NCBI GenBank assembly: GCA_037442925.1
Contig: JBBIPG010000043.1
Coordinates: forward strand, 1 to 19,714
Reading direction: 5' to 3'
Length of the DNA: 19,714 bases
Origin: Candidatus Fraserbacteria bacterium
GTDB lineage: Bacteria > Bipolaricaulota > Bipolaricaulia > RBG-16-55-9
Numbering within the stretch: position 1 is the stretch's first letter; the number at the start of each line of letters is the position of its first letter. The notes beneath the pieces were generated by a model. The model made no database searches and was not told the DNA's origin. It saw only the letters and a program-made list of their open reading frames with translations. The translations under genes were made by a program, and so were the position numbers. Below, one piece after another: positions 2,910-10,930 of the stretch.

Positions 2910-5900
2910 TTAGCTTTGCCCTAGGGGCACACAGTTGCTCAGCGAGCTATCGCAGACATCGATGTTCTCGATGGAGAACGGCAGTAGATTTCCATTTCGG
3001 GCCTTCAGGACGAAGTCTCCAGTCTGGTTCGTCAACCTGACCTCAACAGCTCGATCTCCAACGACAACGAAGGCCGAAACCTGGGGCCACCTCTCTCGGT
3101 TTGCGTCCCCATCCATATCCATCTCTGGGGTGAAGTGAAGAGGCTGAGAATCAGGGGGATAGAAATTGACCCTGAAGGTATAGACGACCTTGCCGTCGCG
3201 AGCGGTTCCCTTCAGTAAGATGTTAGGGTTACTTCGATTTGAACCGGTCAGTTGCGCTTGCTCCGCGGAGGCATTGCCGACGACCTGGGGCTGTGAAACG
3301 TCGAGGAAGCCTCTAGGGGACAAGTTCCGGATGAGGATCTGGAAGGGATGATCGCTCGTCCAAGAAGGATCACCTTGCACGACTACTTGAAGATTGTTCG
3401 GCTTATTCCCGATGAGGAAGAATCCGGCTTGGGCAGGAAGCGGGGGCAGTGGCGGTGGTGTCTGGCTCACGGCGATCGTCTGAGAAACTGAGTTTGTAAG
3501 ACCACCGTTATCCGTGACGATGAGCGTCACCTGAGCGTTTCCTGCCCTAGAGAAACTGGTCTGCACGGTGGCTCCTGTGGCATCGGCTCGTCCGTCGCCG
3601 TTGAAATCCCACTGGTAGCGTACGATCTGGCCATCGGGGTCCGAAGAACCAGAGCCATCGAAGGTCACGACTTGATTCACAGTGGGATTCTGAGGGCTGA
3701 ACGTGAATTGAGCGATCGGCGGCTGATTGACAGGACGTTGGCTCACTTGCACCTCTTGCGCTGTCGAATGCGTTGCGCCTTGATTATCTGTGACCGTAAG
3801 CGTGACGCGGTATGTACGAACACTGGCAAAGCGCACGGTCACTCGGACGCCCTGGGCCTCGACACGGGTCGTCCCCTCAAAGAGCCAACGCCAACTCGTG
3901 ATGAACCCATCTGGATCTGAGGAGCTGGAGCCATCGAACGTGACGGAGTCATTCACGAGTGGCTGACTGGGGCTGAACGTGAAGCGTGCCACCGGCGGTT
4001 GGTTCGTGGGCTGTGAGGAAGTCACTTGGAATGACGCGACATCCCATGCGAAGTTGAGCGATGGATTGATCGACTGAATGCGCTGCGTGAGTATAGAGCG
4101 GAATGTATTTGGGTCTGTGAATGTGCTATTTCGTTGGCCGTCAAGTTGCAGATTCACAGCTCCGGAGACGAGGGTCCCATGAACGCTCTCTAGGCCTGTG
4201 GGTTCGCTGATCTGGAGACGAGAGACGCCGAGAAGGCTCGCCAGATTGTAGCTGCCGGCCCGCAGGAATGCGTTCCCCGATTCCCTGGTGGGATAGAGGA
4301 TTGTGACGAGTCCTTGAGCGTCCACATCATAGAGATAGACGTAGCCGTCGGCGTTCGTGATGAACTGAACACGGATTTCGTCCCCGACACGATAGCTCGT
4401 CCGATCCGTCTGGACATCGATGCTGAGCGTTGAGGGTGTTTGAGCGGTCACGGTGATTTGTGAGCTGTTGTTGCTCTCGTTGGATTCGCTCACTTGGTTG
4501 AAGATATCGGCGATGGCTTGGAAGGTCTCCGAGTTCGTGAGGATGGATCTCTGGAAGCTCAGGCGGACGGAAGAGCCAGCTGCCAAACCTCCCACGGTCA
4601 GGCGGTCCGAGCCGCGACTATCGCGCAGTTCAACAGTGAAGGGGCCGGCCGCCGCGTTGCCCTGGTTGACGACCGTGATGGCAAAACTGATGGGGTCACC
4701 CAGACGAGGTGCTTGAGGTGTGAATTCAAAACCGGAGATGATGAGATCGGGTAGCTGCTGAATCTGTTGTGCCGTTACTGTCAATTGTGCCGTGTTGTTG
4801 GATTCATTCGCCTCGCTCACTTGATTGAAGGGATCTGCTGTGAGGGTGAGCGTGTCGCTGGAGGCGTTCACTTGACGATTGAAGCTGATATTCGTCGAAG
4901 CTCCCGCAGCGAGGCCAGAGAAATTCTGAGTGAGGGTCCCAAAACTGTCTCGCAGTTCCACGACGAATGGACCTGCTGTCGCATTTCCTTGGTTTCTCAC
5001 CTGAGCTGTCACAGTGATGAAGTCTCCCAGACGGGGACTGCGCGGAGAAAAGTCGGCACCGATGATCGTAAGATCTGGTCGTTGAGCGATCTGAACTGTT
5101 AGGTTGAGCCTCCCGGCGCCGAACTGAGTGGGAGAGCCCATAGGGATAGCTCCTCCCTTAAGTCGGGACTCGAGGCCACTGGCGGTGAGTGTTGGGTTCT
5201 CCGAGAGCAAGAGAGCCGCCGCACCGGCCACGTGCGGAGCCGAAGCAGAAGTCCCGATGAAGGGGCTAAAGCCCGCCGTGGAGGTGGAGACGCTATCGGG
5301 TCCGGTGATATCCGGCTTGCTTCGCCCGTCTGTTGTGGGTCCTTGCGAGCTGAATGGCTGAAGCGGACCTGTCGTCCAGTTCAGGTACGAGACCGCACCG
5401 ACGGCGATGGCGGAAGCAGCATCGGCGGGCGTCACAAGGCTTCCCGCTGAGATGAAGGGATTGATGTTCTGGTTGAGATTGAAGAGCGATAGCTGTTTGG
5501 GCGAAGTGACGGTGGCGGCCTTGACGCGGAGCTCATATGTCCCACCGGAAGTCAAACGAACTGTCAAGTTTTCTGTGGGCGGTTGACTCCCGTTTTGGAG
5601 CCGCTCGGATGAAGCGACCGTCACTCCAGTGCTGCTCACGAGGAAGAGATCATAGTCTTGAGCACTCGTTGGCCAGTCTTGCCAGGTGAGGAAGGCGTTG
5701 ACGGTCTCGCCGGCTTGGGCGGTGAACTGCAATCCTTCGCGACCAGAGGCGAATTCCACAAAGGTATTGCCGTTGCTGTCCGTGGCGAATCCCTGCCAGT
5801 GGCGCAGGCCGTAGTTGCCTGCCGCGTTCACCCAGAGGATGTCGGCGGCGCGAGCCCTCTGAACAGCGGCGGCGATCGGTCCCGTTCCGTCGTAGAAGCT

Positions 5901-6722
5901 CGTGTTGAACCACCCGACAGAGTGGTTGATGATGTCCACTCCTTGCCGGATGGCCTCATCGACGGCATTCTCGAGATCGACTTCATCGGCGATCTTCATC
6001 AAGTAGAGCTGAGCGTCCGGAGCCATGTCGTAGACGATCTCTGCCACGGCCGTCCCGTGAGAGGTCGTGCTCTCCAGTCCCGTGCCACTGAAATCGAATG
6101 TCTGGGTGTTTACGGGGAGTTCTCCCCGAGATCTTGCCGTGGAGAACCCAGCGAAGCCTAAGTCGATCACGGCGATCTTCGCGCCTTGCCCTCGGAGGCC
6201 ATTGCCGTGATACGAGGAACCTCCGCTGACCCCGACTCCCTCACTCACGACTAAAGCTTGCGGTGCCAAGGGAGGCCGGATGTACGTGATCCCGGTAATC
6301 GATGCTACCTGGAGGAGGACTGCAAGGGGTGTAGTGATAGCGGAAGTAAGGGGTATCTGAAGCTCAAGGAAGTTACGCGACTGGGATCGGACAATGCTAC
6401 TTCCGGTGAGTTGAGCTGCCACAGCTGCCACAGCACCCACGATGCCCGCAGCTGAGCCGGAGGTCTGGGCGATGACCGTGATCGTGTTGCCCTGGATGGG
6501 GATGCCCGCTTGGCTGGCGGCTTGTTGGACGGCTTGGCTGCTCACGCTGCTGCTTTGCACCATCTGGAGTAGCTGGACCAAGACACTGTCTACCTTTGGG
6601 TTGGGGGTGGTCTTCTGTGCGCTCGTGGTGTGAGTGGCCTGATCCACCCAACTTGTGGCACCCAGCAGCAAGAGGGTGAGGCTTACGATTGCCAGTGTTC
6701 GTAAAATGTGCGCTTTCTTCAT
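2910..6722 (-). CDS. Secreted multidomain S8 subtilisin-like serine protease (propeptide, S8, 2x CARDB, DUF4384-like, 2x PKD, C-terminal beta domain)
   Basis: Signal peptide; catalytic motifs VIDLG (Asp), HGTAVA (His), AAGN (oxyanion Asn), GTSASAPHVAG (Ser); two PDL...NQGxAxAGPF...ESNExNN CARDB repeats; two NQPPxAxF...DGSxSSDPDG...W...V.LxVTDNxG PKD repeats; RBS GAAGGAGG. Confidence 0.95.
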   Translation of the reverse strand: MKKAHILRTLAIVSLTLLLLGATSWVDQATHTTSAQKTTPNPKVDSVLVQLLQMVQSSSVSSQAVQQAASQAGIPIQGNTITVIAQTSGSAAGIVGAVAAVAAQLTGSSIVRSQSRNFLELQIPLTSAITTPLAVLLQVASITGITYIRPPLAPQALVVSEGVGVSGGSSYHGNGLRGQGAKIAVIDLGFAGFSTARSRGELPVNTQTFDFSGTGLESTTSHGTAVAEIVYDMAPDAQLYLMKIADEVDLENAVDEAIRQGVDIINHSVGWFNTSFYDGTGPIAAAVQRARAADILWVNAAGNYGLRHWQGFATDSNGNTFVEFASGREGLQFTAQAGETVNAFLTWQDWPTSAQDYDLFLVSSTGVTVASSERLQNGSQPPTENLTVRLTSGGTYELRVKAATVTSPKQLSLFNLNQNINPFISAGSLVTPADAASAIAVGAVSYLNWTTGPLQPFSSQGPTTDGRSKPDITGPDSVSTSTAGFSPFIGTSASAPHVAGAAALLLSENPTLTASGLESRLKGGAIPMGSPTQFGAGRLNLTVQIAQRPDLTIIGADFSPRSPRLGDFITVTAQVRNQGNATAGPFVVELRDSFGTLTQNFSGLAAGASTNISFNRQVNASSDTLTLTADPFNQVSEANESNNTAQLTVTAQQIQQLPDLIISGFEFTPQAPRLGDPISFAITVVNQGNAAAGPFTVELRDSRGSDRLTVGGLAAGSSVRLSFQRSILTNSETFQAIADIFNQVSESNESNNSSQITVTAQTPSTLSIDVQTDRTSYRVGDEIRVQFITNADGYVYLYDVDAQGLVTILYPTRESGNAFLRAGSYNLASLLGVSRLQISEPTGLESVHGTLVSGAVNLQLDGQRNSTFTDPNTFRSILTQRIQSINPSLNFAWDVASFQVTSSQPTNQPPVARFTFSPSQPLVNDSVTFDGSSSSDPDGFITSWRWLFEGTTRVEAQGVRVTVRFASVRTYRVTLTVTDNQGATHSTAQEVQVSQRPVNQPPIAQFTFSPQNPTVNQVVTFDGSGSSDPDGQIVRYQWDFNGDGRADATGATVQTSFSRAGNAQVTLIVTDNGGLTNSVSQTIAVSQTPPPLPPLPAQAGFFLIGNKPNNLQVVVQGDPSWTSDHPFQILIRNLSPRGFLDVSQPQVVGNASAEQAQLTGSNRSNPNILLKGTARDGKVVYTFRVNFYPPDSQPLHFTPEMDMDGDANRERWPQVSAFVVVGDRAVEVRLTNQTGDFVLKARNGNLLPFSIENIDVCDSSLSNCVPLGQS

Positions 6723-6759: not shown

Positions 6760-7596
6760 TTAGAGGCTTGGTGGCTGGGGGCGACTGGGGAGCCGGACGA
6801 AGGTCACCGCAGGGTCACGTGCCAGATCCGCCAGTCGGTGGATGAGTGCTTGTACTCGTACGAGTCCACCACTGCGCGATTCGATTACCAGATTCAATCC
6901 CTCCGGAAGCTCGGCATCGGGTGAGTTGAGCTCAACGATCACCACGGCTCTCAACCCGGAGAGCTCGATCTGGTTCGTGCTGGCATAGTCCTTCCAGTCG
7001 GGTGCGAGCATTAGCCCATAGAGCACGGAGTCCAGCCGCACGCCCTCCGGTGGCGCGGCCTTACTGGATGGAATCAATGGCTCGAATTTCAAGGACCCTG
7101 TCTGCGTGGGCAGCACTCCCAAAGGACTGAATGTCGAGAGGATTTCGCTCACATCTTCGGAGCTAAGCTCTGACTTGGGCACGTTGGGAGAGACGATGAG
7201 TTCATATCCCATGGGCACATCCGGCGATGGGCGCAGGTTGAGCCGCCAATTCGGTTCATCCAGGCGGATCCAGAAATTCTGCCCATCGACGTGCAACTGT
7301 GGAGGTGTAAAGAACTGCTCTTCCTGCAAGGGGCTGCACGAGGTGCAAGGCAGCAGGCCTTTGAGATACGTCACGTCCCGTCCCGTCTGAATCCGAATCC
7401 AGTAGTCGAGTCCTTGGGCCGCCTGGATGACACTGAGGATGTCATTCTGCGGCGGAGGCAGGAGTGCTCGGAAGTGGCTCTGAGCACCTACGGCCGCTCC
7501 TGTACTGCTCGTGTTCATCCAGAATCCGATGAGTGTGCTTAGAACAAGGAGTGTGGCTCCAAGTCCGATCCATAGTTCAGTGAGGTGGATTCTCAT
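6760..7596 (-). CDS. Membrane-anchored/secreted protein with a C-terminal subtilase-propeptide-like domain
   Basis: RBS GGAGG; N-terminal hydrophobic helix; last ~90 aa align by eye with the propeptide of the adjacent S8 protease. Confidence 0.75.
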   Translation of the reverse strand: MRIHLTELWIGLGATLLVLSTLIGFWMNTSSTGAAVGAQSHFRALLPPPQNDILSVIQAAQGLDYWIRIQTGRDVTYLKGLLPCTSCSPLQEEQFFTPPQLHVDGQNFWIRLDEPNWRLNLRPSPDVPMGYELIVSPNVPKSELSSEDVSEILSTFSPLGVLPTQTGSLKFEPLIPSSKAAPPEGVRLDSVLYGLMLAPDWKDYASTNQIELSGLRAVVIVELNSPDAELPEGLNLVIESRSGGLVRVQALIHRLADLARDPAVTFVRLPSRPQPPSL

Positions 7597-7621: not shown

Positions 7622-7654
7622 AGGGGGAGCCCACTTGAGGAGCTCCCCCTTTTT
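7622..7654. other. Intergenic inverted repeat (RNA stem-loop)
   Basis: AGGGGGAGC...GCTCCCCCT; the T-run lies on the + (antisense) side only. Confidence 0.6.
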
Positions 7655-7665
7655 GTTGAGTGTCG

Positions 7666-9039
7666 TTAGAAGCTGAAGCAAATGACGAACTGGAAGCCCG
7701 GCACATCGACGAGTACGAGACAGACCCTGACTTGCAAGAAGGGCATGAGCGTCCCGGCGGGGAAGGTGATCACAAAGGGGTTAGAGGGCGGATTCCTCAG
7801 TGTGCTGCCAAGGAAGACGAACTCCCTCTGCCGCTCCAGTGTGCCATTGCCGTCAATGTCCAGCCGCAGATCGAATCGGATCTTGGTTGTGTTTTGGGAG
7901 ACGCCGATGATGTAGTCAATCCGGCCGCTCCTCACGGTGCCCTGAAGCACGAGCTGGTTGCCTATCGGCACAGGTACGATGCCCTGAGGGCTGACGTTGC
8001 CGGAGATCTGTTGATCCACGCTGGTAAAGAGCCCGTCGGTCTCCAAGCTGATTCGGAAGGCGTGGTCCGTGGTCCACGTGGGTGAACCCTGGACGGAGAT
8101 GCGGATGTGAGTGTTATCCACGGCATCTATGTGGAAGCCGGGCTGGCTAGGCACTGGGGGTGGAGGTGGCGGAGTGAGAGAGAACACCGTGACGAACTGC
8201 GATGTCGCGCTGGAAGCTCCACGGTTGTCCGTCACCGTCAGCGTTACGGAATATGTGCCGGGGAATGAGTAGGCATGTACGGCTGTAGGACCGAATGCGG
8301 TGCTGCCATCGCCGAAGTTCCAGATGTGGGAGACGATGAAATCACCCAGATCGGGATCGAAGGAGTTAGACGTGAACTGGATGCTCTGGCCGACAAAGGC
8401 CGTGGCCGTGCTCATGGTGAACTGCGCCACGGGAGGCCGGTTGACCGGCGGAGGAGGTGGCGGCGGTGTAGTTCCCACCACGGTGAAGCTGATGAAGGCT
8501 GTGGCGAGCTGACCCACAGCGATGATCCCCTGAACTTGCGGGTTACTCTGTACTTGTTGGGCAAACTGCTGGGGATTGGTGCAGAGAGTCGGGAACGGAT
8601 CGCCTGGGTTTGCCGGAGCATTGAAGATCTGGCTCAAATCTAGAGGCTGCAAGCTGGCAAACACTTGGACGAACTCTGTTCCCACAGGGGGCACCACTTG
8701 GAAGCGATAGGTGCTCCTGTCCGGCAGGGTGAAGGGTCCTACAGGGATCAAGGCGCTGGGTGAGAACGCATTGGGGAAGATGAGCGTGCATCGTCCTGCG
8801 GCATCGATGTCGACGACGTTGAGATAGACCTGGCTGGCGCTGGGAGCTGTGGTCTGGATGAAGAGTCGAATCTCCTCGCCCACGACATACGTGCGATCGG
8901 CTTGGTCCACGTTGATGGTCACTTGGATTTGGCTGGAAGGGGGCACGATGATAATCCCTTGGCCGGTCTGGGTGAGTCCGATCTGACCCAATCCCAGCAC
9001 GAGTGCCAAGAGTACTGCGAACAGACTGAACCGTTTCAT
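7666..9039 (-). CDS. Secreted DUF4384-like + PKD domain protein with Pro linkers and a C-terminal beta domain
   Basis: Signal peptide; YxVGEEI...YLNVVDIDAAG..LIFPN...GTEFVQVFAS (DUF4384-like); NRPPVAQF...WNFGDG...HAYSFPGTYSVTLTVTD (PKD); RBS GAGGAGGG. Confidence 0.88.
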   Translation of the reverse strand: MKRFSLFAVLLALVLGLGQIGLTQTGQGIIIVPPSSQIQVTINVDQADRTYVVGEEIRLFIQTTAPSASQVYLNVVDIDAAGRCTLIFPNAFSPSALIPVGPFTLPDRSTYRFQVVPPVGTEFVQVFASLQPLDLSQIFNAPANPGDPFPTLCTNPQQFAQQVQSNPQVQGIIAVGQLATAFISFTVVGTTPPPPPPPVNRPPVAQFTMSTATAFVGQSIQFTSNSFDPDLGDFIVSHIWNFGDGSTAFGPTAVHAYSFPGTYSVTLTVTDNRGASSATSQFVTVFSLTPPPPPPVPSQPGFHIDAVDNTHIRISVQGSPTWTTDHAFRISLETDGLFTSVDQQISGNVSPQGIVPVPIGNQLVLQGTVRSGRIDYIIGVSQNTTKIRFDLRLDIDGNGTLERQREFVFLGSTLRNPPSNPFVITFPAGTLMPFLQVRVCLVLVDVPGFQFVICFSF

Positions 9040-9061: not shown

Positions 9062-9838
9062 TCACGATGTGCGGCCGCGGTCGGCGGCCAGTTGTCGGAC
9101 GATGGGTGCCCACTCATTGCCGGTGGTGTGGGCCTCGATGTACTGAATGAGCGCAGCGGGAAGCGCCTCGGCTCCAACGAAGGAAGGGGCACGCAGCTCT
9201 CGCATCACTTCGGATTTCATGCCGGCAACGTCGTCGAGTTTACGATCGAGCTTGCGCTCGAAGCGATCCAAGGCCACTGCCGTGGCTGTGATCACGGTAT
9301 CCACTCGACTGACGTTGAGCTCGATCTCACCCGCATCGGTTTGAATGACTTTCATGGAGACGTTCGGTTCCAAATAGATGCCTAAGCTGCGATAGACAGG
9401 GGCGACGCTCCGGATGAGTCGACTCAGGACGATGACCTCCTGAGCGGCCGTGTTCATGAACTCGCCCTTGACTTGCTCGCGGCTGAAAAGCTCGAAGACC
9501 CTACGAATCAGGAGTTCCGCTGGCAGATCGCTCTTGGCAGGGTTGATGATGGAGCCGATGGTCGTAAGCATGTTCTCAGCGGAGGTCTGATTGCTCGGGT
9601 TGATGCGATCGTTGACTTCCTGGAGGAGCTGCAACGCCCGACTGGCTTGAAGATGGCCTCGGGCGATCCCCGCTTGAAAATCCTGACACAATGTGCTCTT
9701 AAGTCCGGTCGAGATATTGAGAGTCCCTTCGATGTAGGTGCACACGTCCTGGGCGGTCTGTCCTGCGGCTGGGGAACTGAGCAAGAGCAGAAGTACGAGG
9801 ACGAGTGTGACGTTCATGGCACTTCGCTGGTGAATCAT
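9062..9838 (-). CDS. Secreted alpha-helical hypothetical protein
   Basis: Signal peptide ending AAG-Q; ATGA overlap with the anti-sigma stop; 258-aa ORF. Confidence 0.75.
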   Translation of the reverse strand: MIHQRSAMNVTLVLVLLLLLSSPAAGQTAQDVCTYIEGTLNISTGLKSTLCQDFQAGIARGHLQASRALQLLQEVNDRINPSNQTSAENMLTTIGSIINPAKSDLPAELLIRRVFELFSREQVKGEFMNTAAQEVIVLSRLIRSVAPVYRSLGIYLEPNVSMKVIQTDAGEIELNVSRVDTVITATAVALDRFERKLDRKLDDVAGMKSEVMRELRAPSFVGAEALPAALIQYIEAHTTGNEWAPIVRQLAADRGRTS

Positions 9839-10389
9839 GTTTGATCACTCACGTTCTTCACTTCTCGGACGGCGTTGACCGTGTTGTTGACGCTGCGGAC
9901 TAAGTAATCCGCGGCAGGGTCATACGCCCACCACTGGCCATCGATCTTGAAGCCGTATTCGTATGTTCGGGGTGGCAGCTTGAGGTTGATGTACCAGAGG
10001 CCATTGCGGCGCTTGAGGGGGATGTCCTGCCACTCTTTGTAGCCTTCGACAGGGTAGTCGATGGCCAGGGTCACCTCTTTGGCTTCCGGATTGAAAACCA
10101 CGAACTCTACCCCCTGGGCGCTTAACGGATTCGAGGTCCAATTGCCCACGAGAAAACCCAAGACGAAGAGAGCAGCGGCAGCAGCCAGCGCCCAGGCCGG
10201 TCGCAGACCCGGCGTGCCGAGCAGCCAGTCAAATCGTGTGCGGGAACGGCGTCTCTCTAGCTCGCGCATGACGTTGATCTCAAGCCGGGAGAGGCGTTCT
10301 TCCTCTCGAGCAACGGCCTGGGAGAGCCCCTCTCGAAGGAGCTTGCCCACCTCGTCATCGTGCAGTTCTTTGGAGTACTCTTCACGCAT
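9835..10389 (-). CDS. Putative anti-sigma factor with TM helix and extracytoplasmic CBM48/AMPK glycogen-binding-like domain
   Basis: Overlaps the ECF sigma stop; short charged N-terminal helix; Ala-rich TM; VEF...PEAKEVTLA...W..IPLK..NGLW.I.LKLPP.TYEYGFKIDGQWWAYDP...N matches the CBM48/E-set pattern. Confidence 0.8.
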   Translation of the reverse strand: MREEYSKELHDDEVGKLLREGLSQAVAREEERLSRLEINVMRELERRRSRTRFDWLLGTPGLRPAWALAAAAALFVLGFLVGNWTSNPLSAQGVEFVVFNPEAKEVTLAIDYPVEGYKEWQDIPLKRRNGLWYINLKLPPRTYEYGFKIDGQWWAYDPAADYLVRSVNNTVNAVREVKNVSDQT

Positions 10390-10930
10390 TGCCTTTCACC
10401 CCTCTTGCTTCTAGCCACTCTTTCAGGGCGAGCTTGGCTCGATGAATTCGCGTCTTGACCGTGCCTTCCGGCACGCTCAGAGCTTCCGCGATGTCTTTGT
10501 ATTCGAGATCCCCATAGTAGTAGAGGACCAACGGCTCCCGATATTTCTCATCCAACGACTTCAATGCCTCTTGGACAAGCGCTTGGCGTTCCTCATGCGC
10601 CACCTGCTCTGCGGGATCCTTCCCGCCCAGAAGGCGGGAAGCGTCTTTTAACGGAGCAAAGAAGCGCTCGCGCCTAAGTTTGTTCTTGCAGATGTTCGCC
10701 GTGATCGTGAAGATCCACGTGGAGAACTTCTTGCTCAAATCATAGCGGCGCAGGTTCTCATAGGCGCGGATGAAGGCGTCTTGGGCGGCGTCCTCGGCAT
10801 CGGGCGGGTTACCTAGGATGCCGAGTGCGATCCCGAAGACGGCTTCTTTGTAGCGGCGCACGATCTCCCCCCAAGCGTCCATGTTGCCTTGAAGCGCCTG
10901 CTGAATGAGCTCCAACTCTCCCTCACCCAT
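10382..10930 (-). CDS. ECF RNA polymerase sigma factor (SigW/RpoE-like)
   Basis: Region 2 DAEDAAQDAFIRAY...FSTWIFTITAN; region 4 YKDIAEALSVPEGTVKTRIHRAK; 182 aa. Confidence 0.95.
   Translation of the reverse strand: MGEGELELIQQALQGNMDAWGEIVRRYKEAVFGIALGILGNPPDAEDAAQDAFIRAYENLRRYDLSKKFSTWIFTITANICKNKLRRERFFAPLKDASRLLGGKDPAEQVAHEERQALVQEALKSLDEKYREPLVLYYYGDLEYKDIAEALSVPEGTVKTRIHRAKLALKEWLEARGVKGNA

Follow-up and report, generated by a model that had tools for sequence, protein, structure and literature searches.

Subtilase propeptides use their β-sheet to engage two helices on the catalytic domain's surface and place their C-terminal tail in the cleft; this tail helps without being essential (PMC6993865; PMC10580911). 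The fold also occurs as a stand-alone I9 inhibitor, with Pleurotus POIA1, yeast PBI2/IB2, Arabidopsis SPI-1 and Toxoplasma TgMIC5 named in one source (PMC6993865) and Trichoderma TrI9 in a preprint (bioRxiv 10.64898/2026.05.05.722857). Plasmodium SUB1-ProM, encoded beside subtilisin genes, is described in the same source as a potent inhibitor whose tail is one residue short, carries a non-canonical P2 residue and raises affinity while remaining dispensable for inhibition (PMC6993865). The principle of a propeptide inhibitor acting in trans is already known from POIA1, SUB1-ProM and the bacterial protein Spi.

The window analysed here, a stretch of 19,714 nucleotides from a genome that the names of three homologues place in Bipolaricaulota/Acetothermia, encodes a protein, P0001, whose C-domain is a free-standing homologue of such propeptides. 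Like the MEROPS I9 stand-alone inhibitors, P0001 presents the propeptide fold as an independent protein; those examples are all eukaryotic, whereas the P0001 C-domain is bacterial, matches no PF05922 profile and carries two extra N-terminal helices, which are present too in the prodomains of Tk-SP, CspB and PCSK9. These cis prodomains (Tk-SP, 3afg; CspB, 4i0w, PF18425; PCSK9) are the best structural and language-model matches of residues 183–276, but they are zymogen parts cut at P1, whereas P0001 is the product of a separate gene, without a catalytic domain and without the P1 Leu. As described in PMC6993865, SUB1-ProM shares with P0001 a separate secreted propeptide-fold product, a conserved locus beside subtilisin genes and a tail that is shorter or non-canonical relative to the cis prodomain. 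SUB1-ProM, however, is eukaryotic and single-domain, with its inhibition measured, whereas P0001 is bacterial, bears an additional 143-aa N-domain and is known from sequence and a structural model; the capping residues also differ, being acidic in SUB1 and Arg/Pro in P0001 (PMC6993865).

Two bacterial arrangements resemble the locus. In Streptococcus pyogenes, the propeptide analogue Spi is encoded beside the protease SpeB and co-transcribed with it, but SpeB is a C10 cysteine protease whose propeptide fold is unrelated to that of P0001 (PMC2873492). In Tannerella, the potempin PotC is encoded immediately upstream of the S8 protease mirolase, but it is an OB-fold lipoprotein with a reactive loop rather than a propeptide homologue (PMC9890683). 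One Bipolaricaulota member is stated to encode a single extracellular protease (PMC6092417). A literature search whose coverage excluded most subscription journals returned no prokaryotic free subtilase propeptide, this phylum included. What is new is the two-domain form of the protein and its near-obligate, phylum-wide pairing with an S8 protease.

The P0001 gene and its genomic setting

P0001 comprises the following features, with an adjoining hairpin.

6760-7596 (-): P0001 gene, free-standing propeptide homologue of 278 aa with two domains and an export-type N-terminus
7492-7596 (-): predicted export signal, either cleaved or kept as an anchor, hydrophobic stretch at about residues 9-27, without a lipobox
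7063-7491 (-): N-domain, α/β fold, residues 36-178 (143 aa), pLDDT 92.6 when modelled alone
6760-7050 (-): C-domain, I9-fold and subtilase-propeptide-like, residues 183-278 (HHalign, structural matches)
6763-6795 (-): tail R268-L278, with the R-x-P-x-x-P motif common to the cis prodomain and P276 at the presumed P1 position
7623-7649 (no strand assigned): G+C-rich hairpin in the gap separating P0001 from the DUF4384/PKD gene, with a T run on the + strand only

An AGGAGG ribosome-binding site lies 6 nt 5' of the ATG, and this site, together with its own start and stop, a uniform length among homologues and a separate clade, marks P0001 as an independent gene product. It matched no Pfam or NCBIfam family. 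The AlphaFold model (pLDDT 89, pTM 0.82) resolves two well-folded domains (residues 36–178 and 183–276) preceded by a helix at residues 9–22 of low pLDDT. Among the 52 long, P0001-type proteins, 46 carry an N-terminal hydrophobic stretch and many N-termini resemble cleavable Sec signals, several with Ala-x-Ala sites recognised by eye; export of P0001 is likely on these sequence features. The first-pass annotation had proposed a membrane-tethered protein, a view that finds no support in this family: the lipobox pattern occurs in 0 of the 52, in contrast to a potempin-like lipoprotein. The hairpin just 5' of the P0001 ribosome site (z -2.98; 0 of 200 shuffles fold equally well) is possibly an mRNA stabiliser or an antisense terminator, and a scan for sigma-70 promoters and terminators gave chance-level results.

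The N-domain, undiscussed in the earlier annotation, accounts for half of mature P0001. Against solved structures, Foldseek gave no match at E<=1e-3 and the best VIA match had Z 5.2, and the Atlas returned no usable match. The VIA rows obtained (phosphoglycerate mutase, flavin monooxygenases, TBP and YwmB; Z 4-5.2) reflect a common arrangement and were rejected as evidence of a family. As modelled, the domain is without a clear solved relative, which does not in itself establish a new fold. Its CxxC (C84, C87) is kept in the order to which the window belongs and lost in the alignments of families f8 and f9, and a role as an essential redox motif was rejected for that loss.

P0001 is part of a putative operon on one strand with short gaps, running from an ECF sigma factor through an anti-sigma-like protein, a secreted protein and a DUF4384-PKD protein to P0001 and the S8 protease.

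10382-10930 (-): ECF sigma factor, head of the putative operon
9835-10389 (-): anti-sigma-like CBM48 membrane protein
9062-9838 (-): secreted protein without assigned family
7666-9039 (-): secreted DUF4384-PKD protein, upstream of P0001
2910-6722 (-): S8 protease of 1270 aa, 37 bp downstream of P0001
6252-6596 (-): cis prodomain of the S8 protease, K43-L157 (HHalign, tail comparison)
5088-6251 (-): catalytic domain of the S8 protease, with D187, H222, S492 and oxyanion N303 motifs intact

The S8 protease consists of a signal, the prodomain, the catalytic domain, two CARDB domains, a DUF4384 domain and two PKD domains, and inspection revealed no evident C-terminal anchor. Its catalytic domain matches PF00082 (E 3.5e-21) and aligns to subtilisin BPN' with the triad and oxyanion residue in place, and its prodomain is diverged and rich in Ala, Ser and Gln. 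Homology links the DUF4384-PKD protein to the protease's C-terminal tail (2910-5087; E 3.6e-38), such that a second part of the S8 protein likewise exists as a free-standing gene in the same putative operon. The ECF-headed order recurs in 13 loci of family f5; a phylum-wide ECF linkage was rejected, no ECF gene being found beside any of 19 S8-adjacent f8/f9 loci.

Elsewhere in the window, two paralogous proteins (205-1005 and 1587-2348, +; 33% identity, E 1e-38) flank a small membrane protein (1035-1565). Their N-termini are twin-arginine-like and lipobox-like and their C-terminal tails hydrophobic and rich in Cys, with no Pfam or NCBIfam match. The prodomain of the partner S8 in f8/f9 is preceded by some 170-200 additional residues (L047:7512-8438 (+), L082:5598-6533 (-), L063:7193-8167 (+)), which weakly resemble one lobe of a solute-binding protein (SBP_bac_8; one of five scanned, at E 0.01, below the cut-off).

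Homology, lineage and tail of the C-domain

Homology between the C-domain and the adjacent prodomain emerges at the level of profiles. Compared as single sequences by BLASTP, P0001 and the adjacent S8 gave no significant match (best E 0.76), and an HMM of close C-domain homologues left the adjacent prodomain unmatched at E<10 among the ORFs of the genome. HHalign of the C-domain against adjacent prodomains, in contrast, gave 97.4% with E 9.9e-12 and a score of 66.8 (33 vs 11 sequences, 4 of the 15 prodomains being left out where the extraction pattern failed), whereas 60 column shuffles scored no higher than 16.4 and the N-domain control scored 12.3; larger sets gave 97.9% and E 4.2e-13 (61 free vs 48 cis sequences). 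Aligned columns (free/cis) include R187/K43, I210/I74, E239/R112, F266/Y147, R268/R149 and P275/A156, and D189/D45, L192/L48 and A205/A69 are near-invariant across the 61 free and 48 cis sequences. In the tail, R268/R149 stands at 100/98%, P270/P151 at 95/100% and P273/P154 at 98/98% in the same sets. The proposal that this C-terminus is homologous to the adjacent prodomain is borne out, and the four segment pairs on which it was based are present and in register in the profile alignment.

The structural model leads to the same family. Strands at residues 216–223, 237–242, 245–251 and 264–268 (pLDDT >96) form a four-stranded antiparallel sheet with two helices, and the best 13 VIA matches of the P0001 model among 48,161 solved chains are all subtilase or proprotein-convertase propeptides. 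The top match of residues 183–276 is Tk-SP (3afg; Z 7.6, rmsd 2.3, 74 aligned), a Z range common among unrelated folds, so that the weight lies in the uniform identity of the top rows: PAM protease, TKS, a BPN' variant, PCSK9, pro-subtilisin E, CspB, cucumisin and EpiP follow. POIA1 (1v5i_B) aligns over its full length to residues 215–276 (Z 4.8). Foldseek assigned the CspB prodomain a probability of 0.96, but with E 0.086, and returned nothing at E<=1e-3 for the whole model; the best ESM Atlas clusters for the C-domain are CspB_prodomain (0.95), and a profile search of PDB sequences yielded chance matches only (best E 0.47). None of the 61 long or 50 short members matched PF05922 (Inhibitor_I9) at E<=0.1, and the adjacent cis prodomain is likewise unmatched. 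The likeness to CspB_prodomain is one of feature and fold only; no long member out of 61 matched PF18425, and the matches of two out of 50 short members (best E 0.041) stayed below the profile cut-off. Where the BPN' and SUB1 propeptides have an acidic pair that caps the helices (PMC6993865), P0001 has Arg268 and Pro270 at the presumed positions; as the cis prodomain has the same replacement (Arg149 and Pro151), it is, on these sequences, a subfamily trait. With HHalign homology and propeptides alone at the top of the structural matches, the description of P0001 as a free-standing I9-like propeptide homologue stands.

The free domain also has its own history. All 52 P0001 homologues measure 162-284 aa, the C-terminal ends of 33 aligned ones fall within a few residues of one another, and the N-domain profile matched proteins of 264-282 aa in 39 of 39 cases within the 253-2000 aa class, a result weak as a negative. 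In a domain tree, which is rough (66 rows, 98 columns, with 6 cis prodomains unextracted and 3 mis-cut) and was used for its main splits only, a branch with SH-aLRT 99 separates the 20 long-family domains from the other rows, and another branch (88) sets all 40 stand-alone domains apart from 19 adjacent cis prodomains. The adjacent prodomain is not the closest relative of the P0001 domain, and the stand-alone domains group nearer the prodomains of a second S8 lineage. Three S8 prodomains elsewhere in the genome score higher with the close-homologue HMM (E 3e-6 to 2e-4) than the adjacent one does. By these sequence comparisons the free C-domain is an old paralogue of the S8 prodomain and no recent duplicate; the earlier term "copy" is apt for homology and inapt for a recent origin.

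At the C-terminus, residue 276 of the model aligns in VIA with the position at which four solved chains end (TKS propeptide 69, PCSK9 152, POIA1 76, 8c4x_B 81), and counting from the capping position given in PMC6993865 yields the same register, with P273 at P4, P275 at P2 and P276 at P1. The cis equivalent of P276 is Leu157, and P275 pairs with A156, one residue before this conserved Leu. P0001 ends two residues beyond the equivalent of the prodomain's last residue, as expected from the first-pass annotation, which had the protein stop just past the likely autocleavage site. Its "Pro in place of Ala" is literally correct for P275 against A156 but fails as a cleavage-site change, the position being most likely P2 rather than P1. 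Pro at P2 is well tolerated by subtilisins. As a source of resistance it was rejected, the P2-equivalent Pro being shared by 6 of 37 cis prodomains and present in only 21 of 48 free copies.

Among the sequences compared, free tails differ consistently from cis tails in that they have lost the P1 Leu or end ahead of P1. The P1-equivalent Leu occurs in 33 of the 37 cis tails extracted by pattern and in a single free tail (L054) of 48, a count that omits L020, whose frame overruns. The free tails carry Ala (16), Pro (9), Gly (2), Val (2) and Gln, Ile or Leu (1 each) at this position, or have already ended (16). Viewed along S4-S1, the motif is kept to P4, and 41 of 48 free tails have Pro, Ala or no residue at P1, in a register uncertain by 1-2 residues; aligned to BPN', the mature S8 N-terminus puts the cut nearer Q155, 1-2 residues earlier than Leu157. 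The claimed cleavage resistance therefore loses its Pro-for-Ala argument, while the idea of a poorly cleavable tail is retained for another reason, the lost or absent P1 Leu. A second long-family paralogue (L083:6640-7482 (+), G003:C37; also P0060), near a contig end, stops before the conserved Arg and has no tail.

Pairing with S8 proteases and the wider family

The P0001 profile matched in 134 of 184 Bipolaricaulota genomes, including weak prodomain-only matches. Among the best 131 listed matches (E<=2e-19, one covering the propeptide part only), 123 have an S8 gene directly downstream: 110 have an S8 catalytic domain, as listed by the domain search, on the same strand and no more than 1.5 kb away, and 13 more proved adjacent when the loci were fetched. 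The remaining 8 comprise 4 at contig ends (L083, L092, L096, L098) and 4 that are not adjacent (L056, L090, L093, L095), L056 and L090 being second copies in genomes that also hold an adjacent pair. As the paired genomes are kin, 123 of 131 measures conservation and does not represent independent trials. The adjacency foreseen by the first-pass annotation is thus conserved in other genomes, and P0001 is a dedicated neighbour of S8. One contig of 6.1 kb (L100, G047:C77) bears the pair together with an identical, inverted second copy of it, which probably stems from misassembly.

A search with the C-domain alone recovered 96 representatives, mostly of 90-200 aa with the domain at the protein's end, of which 34, mostly short forms, carry a looser lipobox-like pattern; named members include Bathyarchaeia and Halobellus. 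The short form carries a lipobox or membrane anchor and adjoins a different S8 lineage from the partner of P0001. Across 18 loci in relatives, it has an adjacent S8 in 14, one 4.7 kb away in 1 and none in 3. The same genome provides an example on contig C4 (G000:C4:53282-56383 (+)), where a second S8 gene is followed by a propeptide-like-domain-only lipoprotein with a 134-aa frame and Tyr at the P1-equivalent; in family f1, a conserved GTPase-like gene follows this pair. For 3 of the 5 S8 genes of the P0001 genome no partner gene was detected.

Outside the phylum, a neighbourhood scan of genome contigs gave one row (L084, probably spurious), one metagenome set gave none, and a second metagenome scan gave two near-identical loci, counted as one. 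A Halobellus-like short copy on a haloarchaeal-type contig lies directly upstream of an S8 gene with a weak PGF-CTERM match, and no S8 is annotated within 8 kb of the Halogeometricum pHBOR04 copy. Among cultured haloarchaea, the short form is present in Halobellus as WP_256545302.1 and in H. borinquense as HBOR_RS18710. P0067 (555 aa), P0081 and P0146 contain several matching stretches (4 in P0067) or C-terminal membrane tails, which suggests that the free domain also occurs in repeats or anchored at its C-terminal side.

Proposed mode of action and alternatives

Propeptide homology and fold, the old lineage, the pairing, the intact triad of the protease and the divergence at P1 together favour P0001 as a trans-acting, non-cleavable docking inhibitor that would restrain mature S8 at the vacated propeptide site and be reusable, a reading to which we assign a probability of about 0.55 on sequence, modelling and analogy. 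P0001 and S8 would be co-expressed and both exported; S8 would fold on its own prodomain, cleave after approximately Leu157 and lose the prodomain. The β-sheet of the free domain would then dock on the two surface helices of the protease, with the last strand and the R-x-P-x-x-P tail directed to S4-S2 as in solved propeptide complexes, whose enzyme-contacting regions correspond to the conserved last strand and tail. Because Pro, Ala or nothing would occupy P1 in place of Leu, the tail would be a poor substrate and the partner, unlike the cis prodomain, would not be consumed. The N-domain may add stability or a second contact, either to the protease insert or to the cell surface. Counting against an inhibitor are the unlinked copies (4 of 131 long, 3 of 18 short, and Halogeometricum), the 3 of 5 S8 genes without a detected partner, the modest top Z of 7.6, the replaced acidic capping pair, the uncertain P1 register and the finding that the free domain has closer relatives than the adjacent prodomain.

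Block of the active site by the free domain may be weak or absent, because 16 of 48 tails end before P1 and the G003:C37 paralogue is tailless. These shortened tails would fit a docking adaptor that fills the propeptide site, leaves the cleft mostly open and tethers, stabilises or positions active S8 at the envelope, its N-domain binding a surface component. Lipoboxes or membrane anchors in the short family, the conserved and well-folded N-domain and a protease with no evident C-terminal anchor on inspection point the same way, but the tail motif is almost invariant up to P4, propeptides lacking a full tail still inhibit according to PMC6993865 and PMC10580911, and the long family has no lipobox. 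From sequence and model, we judge such an adaptor rather unlikely.

By analogy with propeptides as intramolecular chaperones (PMC6993865), P0001 could instead aid folding or refolding of the large exported S8 in trans, alongside a cis prodomain that is itself diverged and Ala/Ser/Gln-rich; its upstream position means that it would be produced first. All adjacent S8s examined (48 sequences), however, possess their own prodomain with a conserved tail, and known stand-alone forms are described as inhibitors that act independently of chaperone activity (PMC6993865), which leaves a chaperone improbable. Little credence, on sequence grounds, can likewise be given to a broad shield inhibiting several subtilases, whether of its own genome or of neighbouring microbes, with linkage reflecting shared regulation: the HMM ranking of the other three prodomains, the affinity of stand-alone domains to the second S8 lineage and the unlinked copies are in its favour, but the same S8 lineage is adjacent in 123 of the 131 best listed matches, in all sampled gene-bearing families, and the second lineage has a separate partner gene. 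Finally, a functionless N-terminal piece of a truncated or split protease gene, the outcome that the first-pass annotation had named as fatal to its proposal, is highly improbable and was rejected: the chain end does coincide with the prodomain end and a frame from the same genus (G001) does continue past the usual end, but homologue lengths are uniform, the long-family clade is old and separate, and a signal and a prodomain are already present in the downstream S8 itself. The frame in question (L020:356-1423 (+)) is an orthologue overrunning into the S8 region through a frameshift or assembly error.

More tentatively, and with doubt, the docking inhibitor may belong to a two-component protease module shared across the phylum: a partner with two domains, its N-domain unclassified, would take over from the consumed prodomain as a switchable, non-cleavable gate, under ECF control in one order. 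It would then represent the most derived lineage within a large, unannotated family of bacterial and archaeal free subtilase prodomains. If the inhibitor reading is true, a stable, poorly cleavable propeptide scaffold would be of interest for subtilisin-inhibitor engineering, and prokaryotes would hold a widespread, unannotated family of free subtilase-propeptide regulators. The near-obligate pairing would then point to S8 having a central role in the envelope of these organisms, for which genomes are the main source of knowledge.
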